DNA from: a virus
Lineage: Duplodnaviria; Caudoviricetes
Direction: 5' to 3' (one strand)
Length of the DNA: 58,303 bases
Virus record (IMG/VR): IMGVR_UViG_3300003324_000049
Location: 1 to 58,303 of that record
The notes under the pieces were generated by a model. That model did no database searches and was not told the origin of the DNA. It saw only the letters and a program-made list of their open reading frames with translations. Made by a program: the position numbers and the translations under genes. Below are positions 2,740 to 58,303 of the stretch, in pieces. The first letter of the stretch is position 1, and every line of letters begins with the position of its first letter.

Positions 2740-3714
2740 TTACAGTTTGTCGTGAATGACGCCGTCGACGTTGAAGTCGATCCAGCAAGAACGCTCGAAG
2801 CCGTTCACGAAGTCACGAACACCGGCCTTCTCGATCTCGTCAAGACCGAGATCAATGCAACCATCCTTGGAATCCTCATGATCGCGACGAAGCCAGCCGA
2901 CAATCTGACCTTCCGTTGTTGCCGGGAAACCAAGAGATTCGTAGACATCATTCAGGAACAGGTATCCCCGAGCATTGAGTCGATCATTCAACCAGTTCTG
3001 CTGGTGTGCAAGAGTCAGCTGGTTTTGACCCGGAACCTTTGACCAAAGGTCGTTGTGCTCATCGAAGACACGAGCGTACGGAGAACGACCGTTTTTCCAG
3101 TCGATGTCCAGAACCTTCTTGGTCCCAACCTGGTTCCCTTCTTCATCGAAGTCGGGAATCTCCTTCTCGACGATGCCGAAGCGGATCTGCTTTTCCTTCT
3201 CCTCACCGAACTCATCCGAAACTGCCCGACGGTAGTTCTCGAATGCCGTTTCAGTTGCCTTGAGGGCAGCTGCAATTGCAACCTGACGCTGGCTCATGAT
3301 GCCGTGGGCGCCGAGGAGTGCGCCGATTGAGAGAACACCCACAGACAGAGCCGGAGTGTAGAGCTTCAAGATATCGACGCCACGCTTGACATAGGCCTTC
3401 GTGAGAGCCTTGTTGAACTCGGTCTCTGAGTCGAACTCGTTCACGGAACGACGATCCTTGACATCAGCGATGTCCTGTTCGGCCTTCTCGACAACTGTCT
3501 CGAGCTTCAGAGTTGCCTTGCAGGCGAGGACTCCAGCGGTTACCACACCGGCTACACCGGCCACCATGAGGATCTCAGGGCTGAAACGCTTGACCTTGCC
3601 AACACCCTTGAAGAACAGGGAAGTTGCCGTGGTTGCGATCTTCTGCGCAGGCTCTGCTGCTGCGGCGACGGTTTCCGCTACGTCGTGTACCGTGTTTGCC
3701 ACTTCGTTACTCAT
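2740..3714 (-). CDS. DUF6353-like membrane-associated phage protein
   Basis: SPEILMVAGVAGVVTAGVLACKAT N-terminus and LND.Y..LG...GW...IDFNVDG C-terminus; paralog of 7361..8122. Confidence 0.7.
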   Translation of the reverse strand: MSNEVANTVHDVAETVAAAAEPAQKIATTATSLFFKGVGKVKRFSPEILMVAGVAGVVTAGVLACKATLKLETVVEKAEQDIADVKDRRSVNEFDSETEFNKALTKAYVKRGVDILKLYTPALSVGVLSIGALLGAHGIMSQRQVAIAAALKATETAFENYRRAVSDEFGEEKEKQIRFGIVEKEIPDFDEEGNQVGTKKVLDIDWKNGRSPYARVFDEHNDLWSKVPGQNQLTLAHQQNWLNDRLNARGYLFLNDVYESLGFPATTEGQIVGWLRRDHEDSKDGCIDLGLDEIEKAGVRDFVNGFERSCWIDFNVDGVIHDKL

Positions 3715-5430: not shown

Positions 5431-5521
5431 CTTATTTCTCCTTTAAGAAGCGGGGCACAATCTTCTGTCATTTAAAATCGACCCAATGGGCATTCGGGTG
5501 ATCCCCCTGTATATTTTGGTG

Positions 5522-6837: not shown

Positions 6838-6895
6838 GATTTTATCCTTTCAAGATAGACAGGGTGTCCATTATAGGACACGTTAAATTTGCGAC

Positions 6896-7354
6896 TTAGT
6901 CACGAAGGTGTTCGTAACCGTTCGGGACATGCGAGTGGATATTTGCCGCAATGGATGCTGTAGTGGGCGGGGCAGTCAACCTCTCTCGAATTTCAGCAAG
7001 TTGAGGATCTTCAGAACCTTCCGACTGATCACACTTGTCGAAGAGTTCCCGACCCTCCTCCTCAACAATTGCACGAAGAAGTAGAAGGTAGTTGATGTGA
7101 TCCGTGATCTTCTCATTCCAAGTATCAAACGAGGCAAGATTTTCCGCATCACACAGGTCATATACCGATACTGTGTGCTTGAGCATCATTCCTGAAAGAG
7201 CCTGACGAGGAGTCTGACCACGAAGCCCGGCAGCTTTCTTGAAGCTTTCGAGCTTATCGCCTTCCGGATTGTAGTGCTCATTCTTGTCACGAAGCATGTC
7301 GAGCGAACGCTGAACCTGCTCCGTAACTACTGAGGTGAACTGCTTTGAATCCAT
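6896..7354 (-). CDS. DUF1599-like (nucleotide-modification-associated) protein
   Basis: KN.HY...F......M.KH...W.EKITDHINYLLLL pattern. Confidence 0.6.
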   Translation of the reverse strand: MDSKQFTSVVTEQVQRSLDMLRDKNEHYNPEGDKLESFKKAAGLRGQTPRQALSGMMLKHTVSVYDLCDAENLASFDTWNEKITDHINYLLLLRAIVEEEGRELFDKCDQSEGSEDPQLAEIRERLTAPPTTASIAANIHSHVPNGYEHLRD

Positions 7355-7360
7355 ATTTCC

Positions 7361-8122
7361 TTATCCGAATCGGTTGTAATCGCGAATTGGGTTCTTCCAG
7401 TAGTCGATAACGACACAAGGTCGTCCATCTGCTGTGAGGACTGCTGAGTACCGAACTTCCAACTTGTTGTCGTGAGTCCATCCAACTTCATCCCCAACAA
7501 CACTCCCAGGAACAGACAAACGATTAAAGAAATCGTTAAGAGAAGCGTAGTCTTGTCCATAAATCTGTTCGTTGATGTCGTTGACTGCACTTCGGACCGA
7601 TTCATAATCGGACTCAAAGTAAGTCTTGGTGTAGTTGTCGAGAAAGAGCGAGCGGCCACCACCAGTCACAATGACTGAACTTTCGGATACCGGGTTCCTA
7701 CGCACGACATCCTGCATGACTTCGTCGTGGATCTTCGTCTCTTTCTTTTCGCCAAGTTGCTCAACAACCTTTTCACGATATTCCTTGAAGGCATATTCGC
7801 TGAGGCCTACGGCACTGGCAAGTGCAGCACTACGCTTAGTGCTCACAGTGTTCGCTCCAATAATGCAAGCGATGGTGGAGGCTCCAGTAACAGCCGCCGG
7901 GATATAGTGCTTGTATGTGAGCCGAACCTTTTCGACGAGAGTTATTTCGTCAGTCTGTTCGGACTGCGCATGGAGGATATCTTGGTGTGCCTTAGGCGCA
8001 GCCTTTCCTACGAGCACCGCAGTCGTGACTACACCAACAACAGCCACAGCCGTGAGGATAGCCGGAGAGTTGTCAGAGACAAGTTTCCGTGCCACCCCAG
8101 CATAGCGAGTGAGTCGTATCAT
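7361..8122 (-). CDS. DUF6353-like membrane-associated phage protein
   Basis: NSPAILTAVAVVGVVTTAVL; ASLNDF...VGW; paralog of 2740..3714. Confidence 0.7.
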   Translation of the reverse strand: MIRLTRYAGVARKLVSDNSPAILTAVAVVGVVTTAVLVGKAAPKAHQDILHAQSEQTDEITLVEKVRLTYKHYIPAAVTGASTIACIIGANTVSTKRSAALASAVGLSEYAFKEYREKVVEQLGEKKETKIHDEVMQDVVRRNPVSESSVIVTGGGRSLFLDNYTKTYFESDYESVRSAVNDINEQIYGQDYASLNDFFNRLSVPGSVVGDEVGWTHDNKLEVRYSAVLTADGRPCVVIDYWKNPIRDYNRFG

Positions 8123-8149
8123 CAGTTTGGTTTAACCTTTCAAGAGTCA

Positions 8150-8233
8150 AAAAAATAATGAGAAGATGTAGTCTCTCTCTACTCGGACCCAGAACATTCC
8201 CTAGTAGCGGGCGATGATGGGGGTCTTCTTCTC
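8150..8233 (-). ncRNA. Putative small structured RNA cassette 1
   Basis: Promoter motif at 8234-8258, no ORF; GAGAAGA/TCTTCTC closing stem, internal GACCC/GGGTC and GTAG/CTAC stems, T-tract. Confidence 0.6.
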
Positions 8234-8267
8234 ATTATAATCTTTGTTATTTTTGCGATAGGCAAAA

Positions 8268-8331
8268 CAAAAAATGAGAGTGATTGTATTGCTACAATCT
8301 CTTCGATACTATTGCTAGTATGTACTCTCTC
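8268..8331 (-). ncRNA. Putative small structured RNA cassette 2 (two GCAA tetraloops)
   Basis: Promoter motif at 8332-8356; GAGAGT/ACTCTC closing stem; TACTA-GCAA-TAGTA and GATTGTA-GCAA-TACAATC hairpins; T-tract. Confidence 0.7.
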
Positions 8332-8380
8332 ATTATAAGCCATGTTATTTCTGCGATTGGCCAGAAAAGTGGGCAGATGC

Positions 8381-8579
8381 AAAAAATATAAGGCTTGCAT
8401 CTCAAAGTGCTTGTCCCATAATTGGTTACGCAGAATGCAATGAATCACTTTTGCTATCGGTGATACCTTAAATAGAGAAGAGCCGTGACGCGAATGTCAC
8501 TCTAACTAGGTGGACCTGACAGGGAGCTGAAATCACGTCAACGGGGACGTCGGAGATCAGACCGTCAGGGGTTCTTCTC
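8381..8579 (-). ncRNA. Putative structured RNA cassette 3 (two domains)
   Basis: Promoter motif at 8580-8604, no RBS; domain 1 has GAGAAGAACC/GGCTCTTCTC, CCTGAC/GTCAGG, ACGTC/GACGT and GTGAC/GTCAC stems; domain 2 has AAGG/CCTT, ATCAC/GTGAT and TTGCAT/ATGCAA; T-tract. Confidence 0.6.
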
Positions 8580-8650
8580 ATTATAAGCTATGTTGTTTTT
8601 GCGACAGGCAAAAAATAAGAGACCGTGTTAGGGTCTCCTATTTTGAGGAT

Positions 8651-8872
8651 TTAGTTCTTTACGAGTTTGTTACGGATCAAGCTAAAGATGGTCTGCGGTT
8701 CATCGAATTCTTCAATGAGCGACGGGTACTTCTCGATCAAGCGTTCCATCCACTTCTCACCATTCAGCGCGAGTACGGCTGAGAGCGAGAGGGACAGAAC
8801 AGCTCCAATCAGGAAGGAGTTCGCTTCAATGAACTGGCCGATGATGGACAGAACAGCAAAGATGGTTTCCAT
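8651..8872 (-). CDS. Cassette small membrane protein
   Basis: RBS GAAAGGA, hydrophobic N-terminal half. Confidence 0.75.
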   Translation of the reverse strand: METIFAVLSIIGQFIEANSFLIGAVLSLSLSAVLALNGEKWMERLIEKYPSLIEEFDEPQTIFSLIRNKLVKN

Positions 8873-8967
8873 AATAGGTTCCTTTCAGAGGGGGTTCATT
8901 CTCATAATAACCTATGTAGAACCTGCGAACAAAAAATGAGAAGCCGTGTTAGGGCTTCCCATTTGGG

Positions 8968-9204
8968 TTAGTCTTCCAGTTCTTTCTTGGAGCGGTTTTC
9001 AATTCCAGTCATAGCGGCGAACTTCGCTGTGTCGAGAGCGGCGGAGGCGGCGAGGACGGTGAGGGCTCCAACGGCAACGTACTTGACGACAGTCTTCGAG
9101 ATTTCGAGGATGTCTTCTTTGGTTATCGAGGGAGTCACATCGACCATGCCGTCTTCCGTGCGGTCCTTCTTCAGGCGGATTTCGAGCTTGTGGTTCTTGA
9201 ACAT
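8968..9204 (-). CDS. Cassette small membrane protein (MFKNHKL...)
   Basis: Start reassigned to the ATG after GAAAGGA; one TM segment. Confidence 0.75.
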   Translation of the reverse strand: MFKNHKLEIRLKKDRTEDGMVDVTPSITKEDILEISKTVVKYVAVGALTVLAASAALDTAKFAAMTGIENRSKKELED

Positions 9205-9294
9205 GATGTTCCTTTCATAGTGGGTTAACTTCTCATTAAAGGCCATGTAGAACCTGCGAAAAATGAAAGGCCGTGTTAGGGCCTCCCATTTTGA

Positions 9295-9576
9295 TTATTC
9301 CTTCTTGAGCATATCTATGGCGGTTTGCATCGCGTCATTCATCTCTGCCGAATATTCGGTGAGTGACGTAACGGTAACCTTCATCTCAACAAGAGTCTTG
9401 AGGGTCAGCTCTGTCAACTCAATAGTGGCTTCCCTATTCGGTAGTTCGAATTCTTCGGGAAGAGCTTTGAGTGTGGCAAGAGCTTCAACATAAGTCTTGA
9501 TGAGAAGGTCTGCGTTTGACGTCATCTCATGTACTTTCGACATGAAGATGAGTTCGGGCGATTCAACGTTATCCAT
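9295..9576 (-). CDS. Cassette helical/coiled-coil protein
   Basis: RBS GAAAGGA. Confidence 0.75.
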   Translation of the reverse strand: MDNVESPELIFMSKVHEMTSNADLLIKTYVEALATLKALPEEFELPNREATIELTELTLKTLVEMKVTVTSLTEYSAEMNDAMQTAIDMLKKE

Positions 9577-9668
9577 TGTATTTCCTTTCGTAGGGGGTTC
9601 TCATTATAAGGCGTGTAAATCCTACGAAAAAATGAGAAGCCGTGTTAGGGCTTCCCATTTTGAAGTGG

Positions 9669-9872
9669 TTAGTATCGTGCGCGCTGTTTCTGTTCGCGAC
9701 GCTGGACTTCCTTCCTCCAGGTCTTCGCATTGCGTGCTTCGGTAGTGCTCGATATGATCTTGGCAACTGCAAGTGCAGCGGCTGAGAGCACACCGATCGT
9801 TTCCAAAGGACGTTCTTCGAAGGCCTGCAAGAGGCGAGCCTTAGCGTTCTCGTACGTCTTCTTGGCGTTCAT
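9669..9872 (-). CDS. Cassette small membrane protein (MNAKK...)
   Basis: Start after RBS; one hydrophobic segment and a basic tail. Confidence 0.75.
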   Translation of the reverse strand: MNAKKTYENAKARLLQAFEERPLETIGVLSAAALAVAKIISSTTEARNAKTWRKEVQRREQKQRARY

Positions 9873-9960
9873 GATATTCCTTTCATAGGGGGTCTTCATT
9901 ATAAGGAGTGTAGAACTTGCGAAAAATTAGAAGGCCGTGTTAGGGCCTCCTAATTAGGAG

Positions 9961-10209
9961 TTAGTCCTTTTCAGGATCGGGGACAACTTTGAGGTTCTTC
10001 TTGTTCTTGCGAGCTTTCGTGTACTCAAAGACAGCCGTTCCAACCAAATCGCCCAATTTGGCAGTTCCGAGGATGACGCCAACGCAGATAAGTCCGACGG
10101 TGGCACCAACCGCGTAAGAGACAAATTGTTCTTTGGGGGTGTACTTGGGCTGAATGTAGTTCACGACGATTTTGTCGCTGTTTTCAATCAGTTCTTCGAT
10201 GCAATCCAT
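9961..10209 (-). CDS. Cassette small membrane protein (MDCIEE...)
   Basis: Start after RBS; TM segment. Confidence 0.75.
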   Translation of the reverse strand: MDCIEELIENSDKIVVNYIQPKYTPKEQFVSYAVGATVGLICVGVILGTAKLGDLVGTAVFEYTKARKNKKNLKVVPDPEKD

Positions 10210-10303
10210 GATATTTCCTTTCATAGGGGGTTACTTCTTCATTATAAGACATGTAATTTTTGCGAAAAACTAGAAAACCTTGTAGGGTCTTCTAGTCTGA
10301 GAT

Positions 10304-10609
10304 TTAATCAGTTTCTGATGCTAGTTTACGCAAATCTTCAACGTATTGATTCCAGGCTTCCGGCTGCAGCTCCTGCCACGCCATGTATCGCGCATATAGC
10401 ATTCGGCGGAGCGGGTCGATTTCGGGATGTATTATAGCAAGGTATTTCCGAGCTTTTCTAGTTTCATCTCTCAATTTTCGATCTGCACGAAGGGCTTCTA
10501 ACGGATTTGTGATAAGCGGGGTGTAGCTGAGTATGGCTTTGTCTAGGGGACCAATCTCATTCTTGAGGAATTTAAATGCGTTAACAAAAGTTTTAACAGT
10601 TTTAAACAT
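10304..10609 (-). CDS. Cassette hypothetical protein
   Basis: RBS GAAAGGA. Confidence 0.75.
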   Translation of the reverse strand: MFKTVKTFVNAFKFLKNEIGPLDKAILSYTPLITNPLEALRADRKLRDETRKARKYLAIIHPEIDPLRRMLYARYMAWQELQPEAWNQYVEDLRKLASETD

Positions 10610-10688
10610 GATTTCCTTTCATAGGGGTTCTCACTATAAGGGATGTAAATCTGGCGAAAAAAAAGAAGGGCTTGTTAGGCCCTCCTCT

Positions 10689-10844
10689 TTAGTACCGGTT
10701 ATCGTACCGGCGGTCGTAGCGAGGGTGTTCGCAACGATTGTTTCGACGCATTTCGCGAATGAAAATCCAGATGAGCCAGATTCCACCCGTCAGACCTACA
10801 AGGATGAGGTCGAGGATGAAATTCCAGAATCCATATTTCTTCAT
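10689..10844 (-). CDS. Cassette small membrane protein (MKKYGFWNF...)
   Basis: TM hairpin ILDLILVGLTGGIWLIWIF. Confidence 0.75.
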   Translation of the reverse strand: MKKYGFWNFILDLILVGLTGGIWLIWIFIREMRRNNRCEHPRYDRRYDNRY

Positions 10845-10942
10845 GATATGTGTGTTCCTTTCGTTTTGGGGGGTTCTCATTATAGGACGTGTAATTCTTG
10901 CGAAAACAAAAAATAAGAGGCCGTGTAGGCCCCTTATTATGA

Positions 10943-11203
10943 TTACTTTTTCAGGTCTTTAATGAGCATTTCGAACTTGTAGTCTTCATGGGCATCTTCG
11001 TTGACGTGACGCTGTTCTTCTCGTGTCAGATGCGACAGGGCGTGATCGTAGGCACGGTTGAGCACTCGATTCTTCCGTCGGCAGTTAGCCAACTTGAATT
11101 CGAGATCTCTACGTTCCTGATCGATCTTTCCGATCGCGTACAGAGCACTAAAGATTGCGAATACGGCACCAAGAGTCTTGAGGACGATCTTAAAGCTGTT
11201 CAT
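10943..11203 (-). CDS. Cassette membrane-anchored protein (MNSFK...)
   Basis: Start after RBS; N-terminal TM segment. Confidence 0.75.
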   Translation of the reverse strand: MNSFKIVLKTLGAVFAIFSALYAIGKIDQERRDLEFKLANCRRKNRVLNRAYDHALSHLTREEQRHVNEDAHEDYKFEMLIKDLKK

Positions 11204-11293
11204 TGTAGTTCCTTTCATAGTGGGTTCTCACTATAAGGGATGTAAAACTAGCGAAAAAATGAGAAGCCGTGTTCGGGCTTCCCATTCGAGGTA

Positions 11294-11488
11294 CTATTCA
11301 GTCAATTCAGGTGTCTTCTTCTTACCTTCGATTGCTGTGATGATGAAGTCGGATGCGAAGTGTGCAATTACGCTGGCAACTACACCAATAACAATCTTAT
11401 TGGTCATGAAGCGGGCGAGCTTGCGACTTGCACCAACGATTTCGTCGTCAGTAGCGTTTTCGAGTTCGGTAATGAGGGTAGTGGGCAT
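11294..11488 (-). CDS. Cassette small membrane protein (MPTTL...)
   Basis: Start after RBS; one hydrophobic segment. Confidence 0.75.
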   Translation of the reverse strand: MPTTLITELENATDDEIVGASRKLARFMTNKIVIGVVASVIAHFASDFIITAIEGKKKTPELTE

Positions 11489-11574
11489 GATGTTTCCTTT
11501 CATAGTGGGTTCTCATTATAAGACAAGTAATTTTCGCGAAAAATAAGAGACCGTGTTAGGGTCTCCTATTTTGA

Positions 11575-11829
11575 TTACTTCTTCCAGAATTGGAGGCGTT
11601 CCAACAATGGTTTCTTTTCCAGCTGCTTGAGTTCGGTCTCAATTATGGGTAGGTAGATATTACAGTGACGAATCAGATCGTCGAGCTGCCATTCAGCTTG
11701 AGTGTGGATGAATTCACCAATGGTGTTTGTAACATCCGCATCAAGATATTCTTTGAGGCGCTCGTTCTGAGTTTTACGTGTGTATCCAACATGCCATTTG
11801 AGGTCGCGGAGGGCGGCTTTGGGGTCCAT
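11575..11829 (-). CDS. Cassette hypothetical protein (MDPKA...)
   Basis: Start after RBS GAAAGGA. Confidence 0.75.
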   Translation of the reverse strand: MDPKAALRDLKWHVGYTRKTQNERLKEYLDADVTNTIGEFIHTQAEWQLDDLIRHCNIYLPIIETELKQLEKKPLLERLQFWKK

Positions 11830-11926
11830 TTTTAGGGTCCTTTCATAGGGGTTAGTTCTCACTATAGGACGTGTAATCCCCGCGAAAAAAAAAAGGAGGG
11901 CTTGTTAGGCTCTCCTCTTTTGGGTC

Positions 11927-12040
11927 TTACTGTGTAGCCATATGGGCAAATATCGCTAGGACTGTGACGACTAGGAGGTACATCTTTATTGTAAAGAGTT
12001 CTTCTCTATGATCGTGACAGAACATTTTGACTTTGTTCAT
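11927..12040 (-). CDS. Cassette micro-protein, 37 aa, one TM (MNKVKMFCHDH...)
   Basis: Manual translation; RBS GAAAGGA; lies between a promoter and a terminator. Confidence 0.7.
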   Translation of the reverse strand: MNKVKMFCHDHREELFTIKMYLLVVTVLAIFAHMATQ

Positions 12041-12119
12041 GGTTTCCTTTCGTAGGGTTCTCACTATAAGACGTGTAATCCCCGCGAAAAAAAGAAGAAG
12101 GGCTTGTTAGGCCCTCCTC

Positions 12120-12254
12120 TTAGTATACGAACCGATAACCATTCTCAGGTTGAATGTGATGACAGAGGGGTACACCAAAGACAATTGGCGCTGTGCAAGG
12201 TTTGATCTCATCAAGTTGCTTGTAGCACCAATCATCGATGTATTCGTGTTTCAT
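12120..12254 (-). CDS. Cassette micro-protein, 44 aa, Cys/His-containing (MKHEYIDDWC...)
   Basis: Manual translation; RBS GAAAGGA; lies between a promoter and a terminator. Confidence 0.7.
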   Translation of the reverse strand: MKHEYIDDWCYKQLDEIKPCTAPIVFGVPLCHHIQPENGYRFVY

Positions 12255-12343
12255 TTTGTTCCTTTCATAGTTGGTTCATTATAACCAACGTTATTCCTAC
12301 GAAAAAAAATGAGAATCCTTGTTAGGGATTCCCATTTGGGTTG

Positions 12344-12526
12344 TTACTCCTTTTCGGAGGGGACGGCATTCGCCAGCATTTCACGCTGGTTCATTTCATC
12401 TTTCACATCTTCCTTGAATTCCCGGATGGATTCGATTGCGGCTCCGGGGAGGGAGGCAATGACCTTGGGGACAAAGAGGACGGAAGCGATGGCACGAACG
12501 GGCTTGGAGTGCTTGGTGAGTGACAT
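12344..12526 (-). CDS. Cassette small protein (MSLTKHS...)
   Basis: Start after RBS. Confidence 0.72.
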   Translation of the reverse strand: MSLTKHSKPVRAIASVLFVPKVIASLPGAAIESIREFKEDVKDEMNQREMLANAVPSEKE

Positions 12527-12551
12527 TTTGATTCCTTTCATAGGGGTTAAC

Positions 12552-12581
12552 TTCTCATTATAATACGTGTAATTTTTGCGA
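12552..12581 (-). promoter_or_regulatory. Representative cassette promoter TCGCAAAAATTACACGTATTATAATGAGAA
   Basis: More than 20 near-copies, e.g. near 6880, 8245, 8345, 8592, 8915, 9245, 9615, 9910, 10250, 10642, 10890, 11240, 11525, 11870, 12072, 12290, 12900, 13100, 13420, 13890, 44195 and 49095. Confidence 0.85.
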
Positions 12582-12619
12582 AAAAAAAGGAGGGCTTGTT
12601 AGGCTCTCCTCTTTTGGAA

Positions 12620-12859
12620 TTACTTCTTAAAAATCCATTTCCAAAGCGGCTTCTTCACAGGTTCTTCCTCTGCTCGGCTCCAGACTCGGAAGATCATCGC
12701 ACGATTCGCAGCAGCTTTCTTATGCAGCTTTCCGAGCTCCTTCAAGTCATCCATAGTGATGTGCTTGGGGGAGGCCATGAGCAGCTGTTCGAGCTGATCG
12801 ATTTCGTCGAGGGCTTCAGAGTACAGAGTGGCAGCGGTTTCGCGAGTTACTGTAGTCAT
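12620..12859 (-). CDS. Cassette helical protein (MTTVTRE...)
   Basis: Start after RBS. Confidence 0.72.
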   Translation of the reverse strand: MTTVTRETAATLYSEALDEIDQLEQLLMASPKHITMDDLKELGKLHKKAAANRAMIFRVWSRAEEEPVKKPLWKWIFKK

Positions 12860-12952
12860 TTTAGTGTTCCTTTCTAGAGGGTTAATTCTCACTATAAGAC
12901 AGGTAATTTTCGCGAAAAAAAAGAGAATCCATGTTGGATTCTCCCTTGAGGG

Positions 12953-13060
12953 TTATTTCTTGAGGTTCGGGGTGTTCAGTTCTGCACATACGAGGATTGC
13001 TGCGAATTTGGTTTCCCATTCGAGCAGCAGTCGCTGGTTATCGCGCTGGTACTGAGTCAT
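12953..13060 (-). CDS. Cassette micro-protein, 35 aa (MTQYQRD...)
   Basis: Start after RBS GAAAGGA. Confidence 0.65.
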   Translation of the reverse strand: MTQYQRDNQRLLLEWETKFAAILVCAELNTPNLKK

Positions 13061-13152
13061 TTTAGTTCCTTTCAGAGGGGTTTCTTTCTCATTAAAAGGC
13101 ATGTAAAATGTGCGATGCAAAAATGAGAATCCATGTAGGATTCTCATCTTAG

Positions 13153-13377
13153 CTACTTGTTGTAGCTGATGTCGATGATGACGTAATCGTTGGCAAACAT
13201 GTGATGTTCCTTATTAACGTCCAACATGGCCTTCAGCGGCTGGGTTACGTTGCTAGCCGGTGTCCTCTCGAGAATCTCTACATGGCCGCCTTTGACGACG
13301 AACAGAGTTCCGAGAAGCACCAGTGCAACAGCAATGCTGATGAGCAGGGCGTTAAAAAAGTTTTCAACAATCTTCAT
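13153..13377 (-). CDS. Cassette membrane-anchored protein
   Basis: N-terminal TM segment; RBS AAGGA. Confidence 0.72.
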   Translation of the reverse strand: MKIVENFFNALLISIAVALVLLGTLFVVKGGHVEILERTPASNVTQPLKAMLDVNKEHHMFANDYVIIDISYNK

Positions 13378-13571
13378 GATTATTCCTTAATTTGATAGGG
13401 TCTTCTTCTCATAAAAACCCATGTAAATCATGCGATTGTTTTCCCAGAAATTCCCCCCGCGCTTTTTTTCAGAATCGAAAAAATTAAAAGCCATGTAAAA
13501 ATAGAAGCCCTGTGTAAGAGGTTTTAAGTCTTACACAGGACTCCTATTTTGATTACTTGTGGTGGTTCATG

Positions 13572-13856
13572 TTATGGTTTGAACTTTCCAACAAATGCCA
13601 CGGCTTTCGACGAGATGACGTGCAACCGTTCATGCTGAAGGATAGCCACGATACCGACGAGGTTACCACCGACCGCGATCAAAGCGTTCTTGCTCACAGG
13701 TTCGCTCTTCCGTGTGGAGGCGATCTTGTTGAGGCGATCTAGCTGATCGAGGATCTTGTTGTATTCGTCAGTACCGGGAGTTGCTTCATGCAGTGCTTCG
13801 GTTACAAGGCCAATCACCGTTTCGAGTCCGGCAATGTTTTTATCTTTTTTAAACAT
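13572..13856 (-). CDS. Cassette membrane protein (MFKKDK...)
   Basis: RBS GAAAGGAG; C-terminal GNLVGIVAIL..ER.HVISSKA segment; own promoter 13879-13903 and terminator 13498-13550. Confidence 0.75.
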   Translation of the reverse strand: MFKKDKNIAGLETVIGLVTEALHEATPGTDEYNKILDQLDRLNKIASTRKSEPVSKNALIAVGGNLVGIVAILQHERLHVISSKAVAFVGKFKP

Positions 13857-13913
13857 GAGGTCTCCTTTCAAGAGTCTTCATTATAATGCGTGTTTTATCC
13901 GCGAATCCGCTCA

Positions 13914-14300
13914 TCAGGCGGACGGATCGTATCCCTTAATTACCAGCTGGGACTTGTTGAGGAGATCAGAAGCAGAAGTCTCGTTCAGCTGAACTCGAAC
14001 AATCGGTTCGCCAGCTTCATTAATTCCGTCAACAACTGCACCATCAAACCCACCGGGAGGTGTCTCGGTAGACGGTGTGTAACCCCTACGAGCAAGGCTC
14101 AGAACTACACCAAGAAATACCGCAGCACCAGCAAGCGAGCCGGTCACCTCTACGACATTATTCCAATGAAAATAGCCGCCAAGCAGTGCGTAAAACACAC
14201 CAGCCGCAGGGAAGACTTTTTCCAGGATAGCCCGAAAGAAGTCATACTGCGCATCAGACAACTGGACAAATCCAGAATTTGTTGCAGAATGATCTGCCAT
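13914..14300 (-). CDS. Holin (Dp-1-like)
   Basis: LSD..YD...V.PA...FY..L...W two-TM pattern, at the end of the tail module. Confidence 0.7.
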   Translation of the reverse strand: MADHSATNSGFVQLSDAQYDFFRAILEKVFPAAGVFYALLGGYFHWNNVVEVTGSLAGAAVFLGVVLSLARRGYTPSTETPPGGFDGAVVDGINEAGEPIVRVQLNETSASDLLNKSQLVIKGYDPSA

Positions 14301-15105: not shown

Positions 15106-15497
15106 TTGCCACCAGACTTGACCCAGGCTTCAGCAACGACCCATTTACCTTTGTATTTAACCATTGGTACAGCTTCTTTCCAGACAGTACCAAGCTTTAC
15201 ACGAGCTCCAGCATCGGTCCTTCGATATATTCGACCGGACCAAGGACCCCATCCTTTAGCATTTCGTCCTCGTACCCAGAAGTAATACACTGTGGCTGGC
15301 TTAAGCCCTCCAACAGAGGTATGACCTCCTGAACGAATATACTTCTGTGGGGTATTGGGATGTGTTCCATACCCAATCTGCCATTCCAGGACTTTTGAGC
15401 CGCCGTCACCGTTACTTTTAAACTTGTAAACAAGTGATGTTGGTGTCGTATCTGTAAAGCCGAGAGGTTCTGGTGCTGGAGGCGTAGTGATTGCCAT
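15087..15497 (-). CDS. Fibronectin type III domain minor tail protein
   Basis: GLKPATVYYFWVRGRNAKGWGPWS FN3 signature. Confidence 0.8.
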   Translation of the reverse strand: MAITTPPAPEPLGFTDTTPTSLVYKFKSNGDGGSKVLEWQIGYGTHPNTPQKYIRSGGHTSVGGLKPATVYYFWVRGRNAKGWGPWSGRIYRRTDAGARVKLGTVWKEAVPMVKYKGKWVVAEAWVKSGGKWKKAN

Positions 15498-23227: not shown

Positions 23228-24805
23228 TTATACAGGGAAGTTATCGATCGGCATGTTGAAGCCGGTTGCAATTTCCAAGAACACGCCCGCAGGAATGTTC
23301 ACAGAAGTACCACTCTGCTGTCGCATCATGATTTCACCGGAATAGAAGTTAATAAACACCTGAACCGGCAGGTTGAAACCCGCTCCAGCAAGCCATCCCT
23401 GTAGATACTTCGATGTCAAAGCGCTGTTTAGAATCGCTCGAATGTTGGTTGGAATAACTAGACCGCATGAGACAAAGGTGTTTGCCATCGCTAAGTTTGG
23501 AGCCCCAGCAGATCGTTCCAAATGAATGTCGATTTCAAACTGCTTGTAGCTACCAATGTCTTTGACTACGAAGCTACCCCTGTTTGTCCAGTTGGTTGGT
23601 GACAGAGGTGTATAGGCATCTGTCCCATCTGGTGTTGTATATGGTGTTCCACCTGCACGAAGGAAGGATCGATACAGGTTCCATACAGGACCAGCATCTG
23701 TCCACCCTGTGTAGAAGAGACGGAATCCATGAACACCATTCTCAACAGCCGGAACCATTGTTGACCGGTAGAGCTGATCATGCTCACCCGCTTGATACAT
23801 GGGTACAATAGTCTTTGCTGATGACTCAAAGGTGTATCCGTCATACGATTGCATGAAGTGGAGTTCGCCGTTAGCGCCGTTCTGATCCAGATCACAGGTA
23901 TTCAGAAGACCAAAGTATTTACCCCCATGTTTCATCATAAAGATGTGCCATGGTTCCTTACCCGCCGGAAGAGCATTGTGTGTTGGGTAGTCGATAGCGC
24001 CCCACTCAGCCATGGATGCCGGAACATTTGAGTTTGCACTCTTCCTTCGAATAACCCTATTTGGCGATGACGTGATGTCAACACCCCACATAGTCCATTT
24101 ACCATCTTCAAATATGAGAGATGGCGACATGATTCGTAGCACATCCTGATCGAGGATGTGGAATGTTGTAGGTCCTACCCAGTTAACGCCATCTTTTGTC
24201 TTAAAATAACGGAACTGCTCTTCAGTACCACCATTGTCGACAGAAGCTGCCCAACGATAGAACAGATACATAGTGTCATCTGGTCCCATTTTGAGGTCTA
24301 CGTCTGAGTGATACTCAGGCTGACCCGTCGCATCGGCTAGAGGGTTGGTTACCCCAGCAGGAACCTGCCATGAAATTCCGTTATTGGAAACGACGATGTT
24401 TGGATCTTCATGATCGTCGTTTCCACCGGGATATGGAGTATGGGCAAGCCAATACTTCCATTTAGCGGGAGACCCCCACCCCTCTGGAAAGAATAGCGCA
24501 GAAGGGTGGGTAGTCTGACCCGGGTTTGAGATGTGTGTAGGAATGTTCATTCGAGTTCCGACAGGCGCCGAAATCTTATCAACATTGAAGTTCATCTCAA
24601 TGGGCACATCATCTTTTACGTTACCCATATCGAATGGACGACCTGTGTAATAACCCAGATCCTTCCAAACTTTTGTACCATCTCCGAACTTAAGGAGACC
24701 TGTATCGGTCTCCAAACCAACTTCACCGGAATTGAGCACCGGGTTGGTTGAAGCCCATGAAGCGGCAGTTCCTCTCCGAGGCTGAATTACAGTTTGTGCT
24801 GGCAT
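23228..24805 (-). CDS. Tail fibre/receptor-binding protein with Mtd_N-like anchor and beta-propeller glycoside hydrolase-like domain
   Basis: IQPRRGTAA.W...NPVL..GEVG.ETDT anchor; HPS, TPYP, EDP, SNNG.SW, SPS and PWH repeats. Confidence 0.75.
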   Translation of the reverse strand: MPAQTVIQPRRGTAASWASTNPVLNSGEVGLETDTGLLKFGDGTKVWKDLGYYTGRPFDMGNVKDDVPIEMNFNVDKISAPVGTRMNIPTHISNPGQTTHPSALFFPEGWGSPAKWKYWLAHTPYPGGNDDHEDPNIVVSNNGISWQVPAGVTNPLADATGQPEYHSDVDLKMGPDDTMYLFYRWAASVDNGGTEEQFRYFKTKDGVNWVGPTTFHILDQDVLRIMSPSLIFEDGKWTMWGVDITSSPNRVIRRKSANSNVPASMAEWGAIDYPTHNALPAGKEPWHIFMMKHGGKYFGLLNTCDLDQNGANGELHFMQSYDGYTFESSAKTIVPMYQAGEHDQLYRSTMVPAVENGVHGFRLFYTGWTDAGPVWNLYRSFLRAGGTPYTTPDGTDAYTPLSPTNWTNRGSFVVKDIGSYKQFEIDIHLERSAGAPNLAMANTFVSCGLVIPTNIRAILNSALTSKYLQGWLAGAGFNLPVQVFINFYSGEIMMRQQSGTSVNIPAGVFLEIATGFNMPIDNFPV

Positions 24806-24808
24806 AAG

Positions 24809-25885
24809 TTAAGGTGTTCCTCCATCGATCGACAGAATATCTGCCGAGGTGTGCGTGTGAGAAAGTGCAGCTTTACCAGCAAGAGCTGTAGAAGTTGCAC
24901 TAGAGATCGGCTTGTTTGCATCCGAGGTGTTGTCGACGTTGCCAAGACCAACATGCGACTTGGTAAGACCGGTAACACCAGTAACACCCGAGAAGCTGGG
25001 GGTACCTGTGAATGCGGGAGATGCAAGGTTTGCTTTGAGGTCGAGTGCAGCCTGCTGAGCGGTAGAAACCGGCTTTGCCGAGTCAGCAGTGTTGTTGACA
25101 GAACCCAGACCAACTGCGGCAGAGTTCAGAGTCTGCCAAGTCTTATCGCCACGGTAGTACTGTGCAGTAGTACCCGCGGCAATTGTGCCTTCCTTTGCAT
25201 TCAGAGCAGTCTGAGTTGCAGAAGAAATCGGCTTGCTTGCATCCGAAGTGTTGTCGACGTTTGCAAGACCAACATCCGACTTGGTCAGAACAACTGCGCC
25301 AGTGCGACCAGCAACAGAGGAAACCGCACCCGTGGTGACAACTTCCAACCAGTCGGCGAGGGTGCCCGGGCTGTCGGTGGAAAGAATAAAGGTCTTTCCG
25401 ATATCCGAACGAATAGCAACGTCACCACGTTCTGCCGTCAGCGCAAGCATTGCTGCCTGAGAGGCTACAGGATAGGTGTTGCTGATTGCGATCGGAGGCA
25501 ACTGAGCCGTCGAAATGGTTCCGGTGATTTCCGAGAAGGCGAAGGTCTTGTTACCCGCCATTGCCGTGGTACCCGTGGTACCAATGACAAGATTCGAGGT
25601 TCCCGCACCAATCGTCGCACGAACCGAGGCCGCGTCCGGATCCTGAAGGATATCCTTACCGATAGTCGAAGCATCTGAAAGCTGCGAAACCGTGTGAGTG
25701 TGTACGAGGTTGGCTTTGTCGGCACCGTTATAAGCGAGTGAATTCCATGCCGTAGCACCATCACCGAGCTTGAATTTATAGGTGTCGGTTTCGAAGCCGA
25801 CTTCACCGGCTGCAAGAACCGGGTTTGCAGTAGTCCACGCAGCGGCAGTACCCCTACGCGGCTGAATTACAGTTTGTGCTGGCAT
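24809..25885 (-). CDS. Tail fibre protein with Mtd_N-like anchor and internal repeats
   Basis: Same N-terminus as 23228..24805; three VGL.NV.NT.D..KP.S.A..AL repeats; HTH fibre motifs. Confidence 0.85.
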   Translation of the reverse strand: MPAQTVIQPRRGTAAAWTTANPVLAAGEVGFETDTYKFKLGDGATAWNSLAYNGADKANLVHTHTVSQLSDASTIGKDILQDPDAASVRATIGAGTSNLVIGTTGTTAMAGNKTFAFSEITGTISTAQLPPIAISNTYPVASQAAMLALTAERGDVAIRSDIGKTFILSTDSPGTLADWLEVVTTGAVSSVAGRTGAVVLTKSDVGLANVDNTSDASKPISSATQTALNAKEGTIAAGTTAQYYRGDKTWQTLNSAAVGLGSVNNTADSAKPVSTAQQAALDLKANLASPAFTGTPSFSGVTGVTGLTKSHVGLGNVDNTSDANKPISSATSTALAGKAALSHTHTSADILSIDGGTP

Positions 25886-43267: not shown

Positions 43268-43846
43268 CTAACTTGCGGCGAGTTCGAGCATTTCATTCAT
43301 AAGACGGTCCGCAGTCTTAATACGGTCCATGATGTAAGCAATGTCATCATTCGGAGGAATAAAAGCAACCACATCGTCGTTCTGATAAATGCGGAGCTCA
43401 ATGAGATCAATCTCGAAAGGTTTCAACTCGTATTCCAAACAGAAGAGGGCAACATAAATCATAAGCTGCCGCATATCTGCTTTGAGGATGCCAGTCTTCA
43501 AGTCATGGATTCGAAGTACGGTACCGAGGTTTGGTTCTTCACGGTAACTGATTGCATCAGCCGTTCCGAAACAATTGTATGAATAGAACAGAATCTGTTC
43601 AGGAGTCATACGAAAGCCGATTGCGTCATTGACGTACCGGCTCAAAGTTTTGTTATTACGAGGGAGTTTGACCCCGAGAAGAATCAGATTCTTAGCGAGA
43701 TCATGAAGTCGACTACCCTCGAGAGCTGCCATCTGGGATTTAACCCATTTAAGCAGCCGGTCGTTGTCGTAGTTGATCCAGTGGTACTTGCTTGCGCTGA
43801 ACTGCGCGTGCTTTCCTTCTAGATGAGAATGCTTGTTGAAGAGCAT
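43268..43846 (-). CDS. Cas4-like/PD-(D/E)XK exonuclease (DUF2800-like)
   Basis: G..LH, FGTADAI, IHDLKTG and QL.IY motifs; start reassigned to MLFNKH. Confidence 0.8.
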   Translation of the reverse strand: MLFNKHSHLEGKHAQFSASKYHWINYDNDRLLKWVKSQMAALEGSRLHDLAKNLILLGVKLPRNNKTLSRYVNDAIGFRMTPEQILFYSYNCFGTADAISYREEPNLGTVLRIHDLKTGILKADMRQLMIYVALFCLEYELKPFEIDLIELRIYQNDDVVAFIPPNDDIAYIMDRIKTADRLMNEMLELAAS

Positions 43847-44126
43847 TGAGTACAACCTCTTTGTTTTCCGGGTATATGACTGACGAGAATGACATTCGAT
43901 CAAACTGTTCGATGTACCATTCTTGGTTGGGGCGGAAGGGCGCTTGGGCATCACGCTTGGCTTCCAGTATTGCCCAACGGTCATTGAACAAAATTAGAAG
44001 GTCTGGAATCCCTTGTTGCTCATTAGCGTCTAGCTTGATAATGAAGCAGCCAGGAAACAACCTTCGTAACTCTTTCTTGAGACCAGCTTGAAAGTCGGAC
44101 TCGAGCTTAGACTTAGCTTTTGCCAT
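43749..44126 (-). CDS. VRR-NUC domain nuclease (Holliday junction resolvase-like)
   Basis: E..FQ, GIPDL, LEAK and PNQ motifs. Confidence 0.85.
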   Translation of the reverse strand: MAKAKSKLESDFQAGLKKELRRLFPGCFIIKLDANEQQGIPDLLILFNDRWAILEAKRDAQAPFRPNQEWYIEQFDRMSFSSVIYPENKEVVLNALQQAFSSRRKARAVQRKQVPLDQLRQRPAA

Positions 44127-49049: not shown

Positions 49050-49108
49050 AGATAAGAGACCTTGTTACGGGTCTCTTATCTCTCATTATAAACTGTGTAG
49101 ATCTTGCG
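49050..49108 (-). promoter_or_regulatory. Cassette-type promoter followed immediately by a terminator hairpin
   Basis: CGCAAGATCTACACAGTTTATAATGAGA, then AGATAAGAGACC-CGTAACAA-GGTCTCTTATCT and TTTT. Confidence 0.75.
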
Positions 49109-49324
49109 TTAGAACGAGAATTCGGGGATAGTAGAGAGCAGATCATTAGGACTCTTAATCCAAACAAGACTGTCCTTACGCAATGGATACCACTGCTTCC
49201 CGAACTGCTCTCTACGTATTAGCCGAGTCTTAGTATCGGCATGACGCACATCCCCATACTGATTGATCTCGTACAAAGGAAAGTCGGGGAGAACCTTCCA
49301 CTTCTGCCTGGGTTTCTTAGGCAT
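49109..49324 (-). CDS. NUMOD4-like protein
   Basis: KWKVLPDFPLYEINQYGDVR. Confidence 0.7.
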   Translation of the reverse strand: MPKKPRQKWKVLPDFPLYEINQYGDVRHADTKTRLIRREQFGKQWYPLRKDSLVWIKSPNDLLSTIPEFSF

Positions 49325-54200: not shown

Positions 54201-54785
54201 TTAGAAGCCGCGCTCGAGTTCGAGAGGAGCCTCTTCGAGGATGTCGTCTCCTCCGGGAGTCCCCCACGGATCATTTGCTGCACCCGATTCGAGAGCGAGC
54301 ACGTTGCCCTTCATGTCTGCCTCAGGGATCTCGGCATACTTGCGCTCCAACTCATCCTCACGGATGGTGACGTAGAGAGCATTCAGGTAGTTGGTGACTC
54401 CCTGTTTTCCATTCCAGTCATACTGGTTTGCCCGAACGATAGCATCGACCTTCTCGATGTTTGCGTAGTCGAGAGCAAACAGAGAATCCTCATCGAGGGT
54501 TACCTGCTTGGTTCCCTGCTGAATCAACATCTTGATACGAGGCTTGGACCGCTCAGTGTATTTGATCTTTACTGGAAGAACAGCTCGTGCCGGGTATTCC
54601 TCGGTTGCCTCACTGATTTTAACCTTGTATCCCATATCGGCCAAGGCTGATGCTTGATCCAAATCGAGAATGATTGCAAAGTTACGATCCCCAGCATTGT
54701 TGTACATGCGCTGCTCACCCGAGAAGTTCTTCCAGGTAATCTGGGCGTTCTCGATGGTGACGTTCTCAATGTAGCGCTTAGTCAT
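54201..54785 (-). CDS. ssb: Single-stranded DNA-binding protein
   Basis: IENA.I.W.NFSG...N..G.RNF, D.I....Y.....G...YL..LYVTI; acidic C-terminus. Confidence 0.75.
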   Translation of the reverse strand: MTKRYIENVTIENAQITWKNFSGEQRMYNNAGDRNFAIILDLDQASALADMGYKVKISEATEEYPARAVLPVKIKYTERSKPRIKMLIQQGTKQVTLDEDSLFALDYANIEKVDAIVRANQYDWNGKQGVTNYLNALYVTIREDELERKYAEIPEADMKGNVLALESGAANDPWGTPGGDDILEEAPLELERGF

Positions 54786-58302: not shown

Positions 58303-58303
58303 A
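58279..58303. repeat. Terminal overlap (copy 2)
   Basis: Identical to positions 1-25. Confidence 0.95.

Follow-up and report, generated by a model that had tools for sequence, protein, structure and literature searches.

We describe an array of small genes in a genome of the class Caudoviricetes (IMG/VR record IMGVR_UViG_3300003324_000049), from a soil phage. The window, by which we mean the whole stretch of DNA analysed, is the complete virus record of 58,303 nt. On its minus strand, between 13907 and 8123, 20 units follow each other head to tail, each with its own copy of a conserved promoter-like motif; 17 of the 20 hold a GAAAGGA-type ribosome-binding site (RBS) and one open reading frame (ORF) of 35-101 aa, and the other 3 (promoters at 8607, 8359 and 8261) are without ORF. 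The motif is conserved among related phages, which differ from each other by whole units, with crossovers inside the junction formed by the terminator hairpin of one unit and the promoter of the next. We consider, with a probability of about 0.75, that this array is comparable to the promoter-early stem-loops (PeSLs) of T4-type phages, i.e. that it consists of insulated transcription units whose junction copies double as substrates of homologous recombination. Promoters and terminators are named below as predicted elements, and the units are presumably expressed early.

Anatomy of the array

Nearly all long ORFs of the window are on the minus strand, including the genes of the array, so that the units are read from 13907 down to 8123. 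In the 17 units with an ORF, the motif is followed by CCCCTATGAAAGGA, and the ATG comes 6-8 nt further on. In several of them, the leader CTATGAAAGGA (for instance at 10224-10209, 11218-11203 and 12541-12526) holds another ATG in frame with the true start, with the consequence that mechanical ORF lists give N-terminal extensions such as MKGNIM; it is the downstream ATG that has proper RBS spacing. The number of units agrees with the initial annotation of this DNA, which had proposed about 20 units made of a promoter, a microgene (or an RNA) and a terminator. Each promoter had also been said to start inside the preceding T-tract, and the T-runs of units 2 to 17 do meet the TCGC of the following promoter. 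The units are the following, in order of reading.

13439-13907, minus strand: cassette 1 (anchor); promoter 13907-13873; ORF 13856-13572, 94 aa, phrog_5818; long hairpin 13550-13498; GC-rich element 13469-13441
13119-13438, minus strand: cassette 2; promoter 13438-13404; ORF 13377-13153, 74 aa, hydrophobic; hairpin ~13150-13117
12919-13118, minus strand: cassette 3; promoter 13118-13084; ORF 13060-12953, 35 aa; hairpin 12952-12915; homologues in loci L008 and L043
12585-12918, minus strand: cassette 4; promoter 12918-12884; ORF 12859-12620, 79 aa; hairpin 12618-12581; homologue in L043
12306-12584, minus strand: cassette 5; promoter 12584-12550; ORF 12526-12344, 60 aa; hairpin 12340-12302
12091-12305, minus strand: cassette 6; promoter 12305-12271; ORF 12254-12120, 44 aa; hairpin 12124-12087; missing in L043
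11889-12090, minus strand: cassette 7; promoter 12090-12056; ORF 12040-11927, 37 aa, hydrophobic; hairpin 11922-11885
11543-11888, minus strand: cassette 8; promoter 11888-11854; ORF 11829-11575, 84 aa; hairpin 11576-11539
11258-11542, minus strand: cassette 9; promoter 11542-11508; ORF 11488-11294, 64 aa, phrog_13694; hairpin 11292-11254
10907-11257, minus strand: cassette 10; promoter 11257-11223; ORF 11203-10943, 86 aa; hairpin 10942-10903; weak homologue elsewhere in the L004 array
10661-10906, minus strand: cassette 11; promoter 10906-10872; ORF 10844-10689, 51-aa membrane peptide; hairpin 10694-10657
10269-10660, minus strand: cassette 12; promoter 10660-10626; ORF 10609-10304, 101 aa; hairpin 10302-10265
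9926-10268, minus strand: cassette 13; promoter 10268-10234; ORF 10209-9961, 82 aa, hydrophobic; hairpin 9960-9922
9631-9925, minus strand: cassette 14; promoter 9925-9891; ORF 9872-9669, 67 aa, phrog_13500; hairpin 9665-9627
9263-9630, minus strand: cassette 15; promoter 9630-9596; ORF 9576-9295, 93 aa; hairpin 9297-9259; one homologue, in Arthrobacter phage Lewando
8932-9262, minus strand: cassette 16; promoter 9262-9228; ORF 9204-8968, 78 aa, phrog_6618; hairpin 8968-8928
8608-8931, minus strand: cassette 17; promoter 8931-8897; ORF 8872-8651, 73 aa, hydrophobic; hairpin 8643-8604
8360-8607, minus strand: unit 18, no ORF; promoter 8607-8573; branched RNA of ~105 nt, closed by a stem between its 5' end and the segment preceding a short T-run
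8262-8359, minus strand: unit 19, no ORF; promoter 8359-8325; RNA of ~57 nt; T-tract
8123-8261, minus strand: unit 20, no ORF; promoter 8261-8227; RNA of 75 nt closed by a 7-bp terminal stem; T-tract

The motif at the head of each unit

A repeat search of the window returned 19 copies of a 31-nt element, from which a weight matrix was made. These 19 copies fit by construction, and the independent finds are those outside the training set, at 8897-8931, 6863-6897 and 49078-49112. Above 12 bits, the 35-nt motif was detected at 22 sites in the 58,303 nt, every one on the minus strand, and 20 of them are in 8227-13907. With the threshold at 5 bits, 23 minus-strand and 0 plus-strand sites were obtained, and the best score in one shuffled genome was −2.2 bits. 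The consensus is TTTTCGCAAGAATTACATGTCTTATAATGAGAACC, with information peaks at TCGC, AC, the hexamer and TGA. Its last ~12 positions may resemble the initiation region of T7-group promoters; no T7-type polymerase was seen in the genome. Two copies detected by the matrix are outlying:

6863-6897, minus strand: motif copy of 21.2 bits, ahead of a 63-aa ORF (6837-6646)
49078-49112, minus strand: motif copy of 26.7 bits, in the replication region

Related genomes have the same element. Through the cassette 1 protein, 29 related IMG/VR loci were collected, and the matrix matches 28 of them, on the gene strand only, at G+C contents of 34-60%. The array starts in every case, these 29 loci included, with conserved cassette 1 (phrog_5818 family). 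Locus L008 has 25 motif copies, and L005, a separately found relative, has 13 (L004 and L008 are one and the same contig). Motif copies together with loop-conserved hairpins are present in Arthrobacter phage Circum, in Gordonia phage Kenosha (L045, 9 sites above 20 bits), in Streptomyces phage Scap1 (L036, 6 sites) and in Lactococcus phage 1706 (L035, 7 near-identical copies), and Arthrobacter phages of cluster AM have 6-8 motif copies. Faecalibacterium phage FP_oengus holds 11 diverged copies in the same register (CGCG, 6 nt, TACA, 5 nt, CTTTATGGA), which adjoin hairpin/T-run elements. Most lineages have TATAAT or TATAGT as hexamer.

Hairpins and junction repeats

The hairpins of units 2 to 17 range from −12.7 to −23.0 kcal/mol, and are followed by a T-run abutting the next promoter. 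A simple terminator scan gave 18 sites, compared to 7.3 ± 2.5 in shuffles. Once aligned, the 16 hairpins have a 13-bp helix in common, with 82.6% of the cells paired (73.1 ± 1.6 in shuffles) and 24 double-sided changes (9.7 ± 2.5, the value of 24 being reached in 0 of 500 shuffles). When the partner columns of the alignment were slid, pairing fell to 41-68%. This means that the hairpin structure itself has been selected, beyond sequence identity. The loop, CUAACA(C/A), is near-invariant while the stems covary (see for instance 8625-8631, 9641-9647 and 11553-11559), and it is found in Circum and Scap1 as well. Such conservation exceeds the need of a generic intrinsic terminator, so that the loop may be a recognition site.

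Exact direct repeats of at least 18 nt number 16 in the window, of which 14 fall in the array (the longest being 37, 36 and 34 nt), and repeated 18-mers were found in 0 of 20 shuffled genomes. The two near-identical junction pairs that had been quoted initially are exact over 34 nt (8931/9627) and over 36 nt (8611/11539). More generally, junction copies have exact matches of 18-37 nt and are 60-95% identical over ~65-100 nt. The nearest partners of terminators and of promoters differ: the terminator T7 equals T4 (37 nt exact) and the promoter P8 equals P7 (24 nt exact), T16 equals T14, and T17 equals T8. Past exchanges with crossovers located between the T-run and the promoter would leave such mismatched partners. 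An argument from concerted evolution, made on the promoters, terminators and leaders of 8 genomes, was dropped: within-genome similarity was barely higher in most of them, and equal for the window compared to L008.

Two side observations concern the stretches around the junctions. Between the RNA of unit 18 and promoter 19, positions 8382-8480 are the best-conserved non-coding stretch compared to L004, with 78% identity over 101 nt. Between the terminator of cassette 1 and promoter 2 lies a GC-rich element (13441-13469, minus strand AAAAAAAGCGCGGGGGGAATTTCTGGGAAA) flanked by an A-run, with counterparts at the same position in L004 (~3550-3583), L043 (~10380-10410), L005 (~5448-5477) and Scap1 (~23740-23765).

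Relatives differ by whole units

The array is bordered by two genes that are collinear in relatives:

13914-14300, minus strand: holin-like gene, last of the structural/lysis block (Pfam Phage_holin_Dp1); upstream flank
7361-8122, minus strand: DUF6353 protein; downstream flank, its RBS coming after the T-tract of unit 20

These flanks are collinear in ~20 loci, and between them both the order and the content of the cargo vary; a fixed, collinear gene set devoid of junction breakpoints was not seen. The initial annotation had supposed that modules are gained, lost or shuffled, and relatives do differ by whole units, with the crossover inside the terminator/promoter junction. A metagenome scan for close relatives gave one locus, L043, a contig with 70-77% DNA identity that stops 1.9 kb into the array. 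Its order is 1, 17', 3, 4, 5, 7, 8, 9, and then the contig ends. Cassette 6 is missing, and the single junction going from 5 to 7 is made of the hairpin of the 5/6 junction and the promoter of the 6/7 junction, which places the crossover in the T-tract and the upstream half of the promoter. At position 2 is a homologue of cassette 17, the last protein cassette of the window (41% identity, E = 5e-15).

A second case is cassette 2, which is skipped in contigs of a relative, where 13116 is joined to ~13437, both in run X5 (79 letters on the shorter side) and in run X6 (29 letters). The 26 letters between are those of 13437-13462, and the cut falls exactly between ...GCGAT (CGC box) of promoters 3 and 2. 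Depth over 13122-13422 was 0 and 0.36 in the two runs, with neighbouring bins covered; bins without cover were left out, save the one bridged by a contig. The third case is that of L007 and L008, which are 89% identical, and collinear but for one cassette that L007 does not have. Over 55 nt of the junction, the two alignment blocks cover the same sequence, and the L007 junction is a chimaera of the two flanking ones. In L008, the closest complete relative, 9 cargo families of the 17 are clearly common with the window and one weakly so, with 10 others interleaved; family 16 comes ahead of 10' and 14 in that locus, whereas the window and the AM phages have 14 ahead of 16.

Among finished isolates, Kardesai exceeds Mudcat by 4 units (1,294 nt), and their alignment switches inside a common promoter. 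In unit indels, 40-61 nt align to both sides. Cluster AM was analysed over 8 isolates, i.e. 28 pairs with 123 gaps of at least 100 nt, these pairwise counts not being equal to independent events. Junction zones represent 6-10% of the sequence, and they contained all four ends of 20 of the 51 pure indels.

The same observations could be read otherwise, if the repeats were purely regulatory, and if illegitimate recombination followed by selection for intact genes produced the differences without any causal role of junction homology. Phage mosaicism at gene borders is indeed widespread, and in cluster AM 31 of the 51 pure indels, as well as 68 of the 72 replacements, do not have all their ends in junction zones (4 of the 72 do). 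On the other side, the 40-61 nt aligning to both flanks and the clean chimaeric junctions are a signature of homology-guided exchange, and the 20 indels with four ends in so small a part of the sequence argue in the same direction. We hold a purely regulatory role to be unlikely.

Several points weigh against our interpretation of the array. The 20 junction-bounded AM indels are all at one hot spot (0-4 extra units) and are not independent, and the AM gaps ending elsewhere, whose numbers are given above, mean that junction exchange is one route among several. Unit differences are seen as presence or absence, gain and loss not being told apart, and selection by itself could enrich surviving breakpoints at gene borders. 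Because relatives are only 70-77% identical (L043) or come from contig tables (X5, X6), crossovers are placed within tens of bases. The mean promoter similarity is 0.68 within the window, and also 0.68 between the window and L008, which gives no hint of strong concerted evolution. Transcription, termination and timing of the units are predicted from sequence, whereas mini-circles, promoter activity and terminator activity are reported as demonstrated in the available parts of the PeSL papers (cited below). Finally, contigs of runs X1 and X4 break at junction repeats, so that the cassette order rests on reads spanning repeats of at most 37 nt.

This last point could suggest that the array, or its order, is an assembly artefact of the repeats. 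Besides the breaks in these short-read contigs, one X4 contig closes on itself across a 34-nt exact repeat, going from 9626 to 8931 (696 back), with a flank depth of ~2-4; it may be a graph cycle, the assembly word being presumably ~31 letters, barely below the repeat, and it was not used as evidence. Against such an origin, the same architecture is found in the finished isolate genomes of Circum, Kenosha, Scap1 and 1706 and in independent metagenome contigs, and the longest exact repeat, of 37 nt, is shorter than the read length. An artefact is therefore most improbable. Other contig joints (9632->11492, 10937->12044, 11888->12916 and 12096->9594, with 22-39 letters on the shorter side) are probably due to repeats of a relative matching several junctions of the window, and were not used either.

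How units may be exchanged

We propose that the array is a hyperplastic, presumably early region of a lytic siphovirus-type phage, situated between the tail/lysis block and the replication genes. In each unit, a promoter both strong and conserved would drive one small gene or structured RNA, with a strong RBS in the short leader, and transcription would stop at a hairpin followed by a U-tract. As the terminator and the following promoter form a composite junction, a unit could be removed, added or moved without polar effects. The primary role of this composite junction would be in transcription. It had been suggested at first that the junctions exist to serve recombination, which we do not retain: a motif kept across phages of two phyla points to transcription first, with recombination as a by-product. 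The ~20 junction copies, with their exact and imperfect homology, would be substrates for homologous recombination as well, and two phage genes are candidates to act on them:

54201-54785, minus strand: single-strand annealing protein (phrog_4787); candidate recombinase on the junction repeats
43268-43984, minus strand: exonuclease (phrog_3953); candidate partner of the annealing protein

We infer that the phage's own annealing protein and exonuclease may recombine the junctions, either within concatemers during replication or when related phages co-infect a cell. Whole units would be deleted, duplicated, inserted or moved by unequal or intermolecular crossovers, with the neighbours left undisturbed, and unequal exchange or exchange between co-infecting relatives would give the chimaeric junctions observed.

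The array had been labelled integron-like in the initial annotation. In such a system, the hairpins would be attC-like sites, recognised by a site-specific recombinase from the phage or the host. There is some likeness, as in both cases small unrelated genes are lined up as cassettes that can be exchanged one by one, with imperfect inverted repeats at their borders (here with a conserved loop). Integrons, however, have an integrase, site-specific exchange between attI and attC, and promoterless cassettes under one common promoter (Pc). In the array every cassette has its own promoter, hence no common Pc, and each hairpin is followed by a T-run, as in intrinsic terminators. The four crossovers examined are in the T-tract or the promoter, downstream of the hairpin and not inside it. 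As for the recombinase, the annotation was right in reporting no integrase, since no tyrosine or serine recombinase family was found in the complete genome: PF00589 gave 0 matches, where 14 of 14 control genomes were positive, and PF00239 (serine recombinase) gave 0 matches, where 12 of 14 were. With no sign of site-specific recombination, we abandon the label, and give an integron-like mechanism next to no chance.

Comparison with known phage repeats

Modular exchange of small genes at repeated signals is already known for T4-type phages; here it is found in an unrelated lineage. Recombination between PeSL repeats was proposed by Arbiol et al. (2010, PMC2839356), and PeSLs of T4-type myoviruses were also treated by Comeau et al. 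(2014, PMC4122927). Judging from the parts of these papers that were available, three traits are common to both systems. The repeat is an intergenic composite of promoter and stem-loop (here 20 motif copies and 16 covarying hairpins); it marks a hyperplastic region beside ORFans (here 20 of the 22 copies in 5.7 kb, and 13 of the 17 cargo proteins without PHROG family); and indels or replacements between relatives end in the repeats (here cassettes 6 and 2, the L007/L008 pair and the AM hot spot). The two systems also differ. PeSLs belong to T4-type myoviruses, whereas the array is in a 58-kb long-tailed phage with genes on one strand, from the supercluster of actinophages and 1706. The array is also far more regular, almost every gene being a unit and the terminator being always upstream of the promoter. 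PeSL promoters fit the sigma-70 consensus (−35, ~17 nt, −10), but the array motif does not (0 of 20 copies).

Elements of the array have been noticed in the same supercluster. In the accessible text of PMC9671010, a 50-bp intergenic motif is reported 5 times for Gordonia phage Vardy (cluster DJ), its TATAAT being named a "-10 sigma-70" box and read as a promoter; for comparison, our matrix finds the 9 strong copies mentioned above in Kenosha, also a DJ phage. Klyczek et al. (2017, PMC5513430) noted, in the portion available, that phages of Arthrobacter clusters AM and AU have small genes for membrane proteins arrayed behind the tail genes. As far as these texts extend, genome position after the tail genes and supercluster are the same as here, and the motif is evidently the same. 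The words promoter and terminator occur 0 times in Klyczek et al. (2017, PMC5513430), and in the available parts of PMC9671010 and PMC5513430 no terminator-promoter junction, unit-wise recombination, cross-phylum conservation or link to a polymerase is described. In the literature covered, which leaves aside the older papers on ReqiPepy6/Poco6 and on 1706 as well as supplements, so that prior print is possible, no account was found of junction shuffling, cross-phylum conservation or a polymerase link.

If our interpretation is right, the PeSL idea is extended from T4-type myoviruses to a large, unrelated siphovirus supercluster, and the array is a very clean natural case of insulated single-gene expression modules evolving by unit-wise exchange. 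As this supercluster has many cultivable members (SEA-PHAGES isolates), the idea is testable at the bench.

Which RNA polymerase reads the motif

The genome encodes an RNA polymerase of its own:

40508-43255, minus strand: two-barrel (YonO/RNA-dependent RNA polymerase (RdRP)-like) RNA polymerase of 915 aa, with a C-terminal helix-turn-helix (HTH); candidate reader of the motif

It matches phrog_4291 (E = 0, over residues 5-909 of 915), and has DFDGD, corresponding to the DxDGD loop, at residues 517-521. Identity is 42-56% with the enzymes of Arthrobacter (AM, AU), Streptomyces (BI), Gordonia (DJ), Rhodococcus, Curtobacterium and Microbacterium phages, and 37-43% with those of the Lactococcus 1706 group and of Faecalibacterium phages. 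The 1706 orthologue is called "structural protein", a label that is in the GenBank record only.

We give about an even chance to the motif being read by this phage polymerase. Four observations argue for it: the motif has no sigma-70 spacing, its three-box layout is kept across phyla, transcription appears to start next to the hexamer (see below), and all these phages have the enzyme. Moreover, the GAGA that comes after the three boxes also persists in phages of two phyla. The alternative is that the motif is an ordinary "-10 only" early promoter of the host sigma-A (sigma-70 type) holoenzyme, with the upstream boxes kept for some other reason, for instance as a regulator site. Early genes of most phages are transcribed by the host enzyme, actinobacterial promoters often have no −35 element, and the hexamer is TATAAT/TATAGT in most lineages. 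The Vardy announcement (PMC9671010), the one paper found that deals with this motif, likewise takes it, in its accessible part, for a −10 sigma-70 box. What this alternative has against it is the layout: the CGC box stops 15 nt and the TACA box 5 nt ahead of the hexamer, and a −35 element needs 16-18 nt; 0 of the 20 array copies passed a two-hexamer sigma-70 scan; the three boxes are common to phages of Actinobacteria and Firmicutes; and in FP_oengus the hexamer position reads CTTTAT, without the key A in second position. Host reading is in our opinion a strong contender, with a somewhat less than even chance.

Additional evidence came from the units without ORF. The last three or four units of an array are of this kind. 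Their predicted RNAs measure 55-110 nt and fold back on themselves, the 5'-most bases pairing immediately ahead of the T-tract, which makes the terminator stem also the closing stem of the RNA. In a set of 31 such units from 22 loci, which includes some mis-called ones, 15 units show pairing of at least 6 bp between the 3' end preceding the T-tract and bases that start 0-3 nt past the hexamer. With permuted 3' ends, 6.2 ± 1.9 cases were obtained (0 of 500 permutations reached 15), and with a 5' window placed 7 nt downstream, 2 of 31. A terminal stem in the RNA requires a start next to the hexamer, i.e. closer than a sigma-70 promoter allows, which speaks against the host enzyme.

Against the phage polymerase as reader, one can object, besides the mis-called members of this set, that the hexamer resembles a −10 box, and that the motif occurs in enzyme-carrying phages of 5 host genera and 2 phyla which are all relatives, so that co-occurrence is confounded by descent. 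A more complete scheme, which we regard as plausible with a little less than one chance in two, is that the junction is an entire host-independent transcription signal for an HTH-bearing two-barrel polymerase. The promoter would be composed of the CGC box, the TACA box and TATA(A/G)T, then GAGA from ~+1; the hairpin with its conserved CUAACA(C/A) loop would be a dedicated terminator; and the polymerase would be virion-borne and enter with the virion. Portable modules of this kind, independent of the host, would explain that one motif is present in phages of Actinobacteria and Firmicutes at G+C contents of 33-61%, and that units are freely shuffled.

There are precedents for such enzymes, here too limited to what the available parts of the papers state. 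The virion and non-virion two-barrel enzymes of Thermus phage P23-45 use their own conserved promoter motifs, a subset of their termination sites has a conserved 26-nt motif in common, and relatives without the enzyme are without the motif (bioRxiv 10.1101/2022.12.01.518664). A virion two-barrel RNA polymerase was described for the crAss-like phage phi14:2 (bioRxiv 10.1101/2020.03.07.982082), and the promoter sequence of SPbeta YonO was still unknown in 2017 (PMC5467207). Similarly to the P23-45 type, the window encodes a single-chain two-barrel polymerase with DxDGD, and both promoter and terminator loop are conserved. The differences are that promoters are established for the P23-45 enzymes and are a candidate pairing here, and that the window enzyme carries HTH domains (bioRxiv 10.1101/842583). 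If the phage polymerase does read the motif, that enzyme family would gain its first consensus for promoters and terminators, along with a natural set of variants for understanding start-site selection by a single-chain, sigma-less relative of cellular polymerases. A compact orthogonal expression system for Gram-positive bacteria may then follow, and each cassette would be a portable, plug-and-play module working in any host entered.

RNAs of the units without ORF

The set of units without ORF is kept just ahead of the DUF6353 gene, at 8123-8607 in the window, 9173-9990 in L004 and 8242-9200 in L005. RNAfold closes several of the RNAs with a terminal stem, and L004:9884-9975 has a z score of −6.8. 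An Rfam scan of 7900-14100 with E up to 1 gave nothing relevant, the one match being a chance-level snoRNA (29.9 bits, for a gathering score of 60). A tRNA-like T-arm (GTTCGAT/A...) was seen after one motif copy in Kenosha (L045, ~15324-15432) and in phage 1706 (L035, 19074-19217). This tRNA-like look was noted by eye in 1706, Kenosha and L005; ARAGORN made no tRNA call in the window, in 8 related loci or in L035, leaving the tRNA-like reading unsupported.

Cargo proteins

The cargo had been described initially as unrelated genes, mostly for small membrane or helical peptides, which might serve in host takeover or anti-defence. The genes are indeed unrelated, no pair among the 17 cargo proteins being below E = 0.03, and 11 of the 17 have a 19-aa hydropathy peak of at least 1.6, a crude measure. 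A PHROG family was assigned to 4 of the 17, all of "unknown function", and none to the other 13. Pfam gave a match for 0 of the 10 cargo proteins tested, and cassette 12 had no tblastn match in the phage collection. The family of cassette 11 sits in the replication region of 55 Gordonia (DJ) and 4 Rhodococcus phage records, meaning that the same small gene can occupy different contexts. Altogether, ~17 small, mostly membrane-directed ORFans and 3 small structured RNAs suggest a fast-turnover, host-facing gene set.

The genome and its relatives

A 25-nt repeat is present at both ends of the record (1-25 = 58279-58303), indicating that the assembly is circularly closed and that the record ends are not the physical ends of the genome. 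The primase-polymerase gene is cut by these ends (1-1077 and 55531-58302). As determined with PHROG and Pfam, the order on the minus strand starts with this split gene, followed by the strand-annealing protein, a helicase, HNH endonucleases, the exonuclease and the 915-aa RdRP-like polymerase. Next come terminase and portal, a fused protease-capsid gene, a 1,687-aa ORF of tape-measure size, minor tail proteins and the holin-like gene ending at 13914. The array follows, and after it two DUF6353 proteins, together with further conserved genes without assigned function. The relatives are Arthrobacter AM and AU, Gordonia DJ and Streptomyces BI phages and the Lactococcus 1706 group. These are siphoviruses (Mudcatvirus / DJ / BI / 1706 group), and the window genome has the fused capsid-protease and tape-measure genes; the supercluster is described in the available part of Koert et al. 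(bioRxiv 10.1101/842583). No match to the array was obtained by megablast among 50,697 phage records, relatives being found through proteins only, and a first scan for relatives based on DUF6353 yielded 2 loci only.

Two repetitions outside the array were also noted. The DUF6353 / phrog_2152 protein is present in two diverged copies downstream of the array, at 7361-8122 and 2740-3714, ~4 kb apart. A 26-nt exact direct repeat (24780-24805 and 25860-25885) is found at the starts of two adjacent tail-fibre-like genes, and is the sole long exact repeat besides those of the array and of the record ends.

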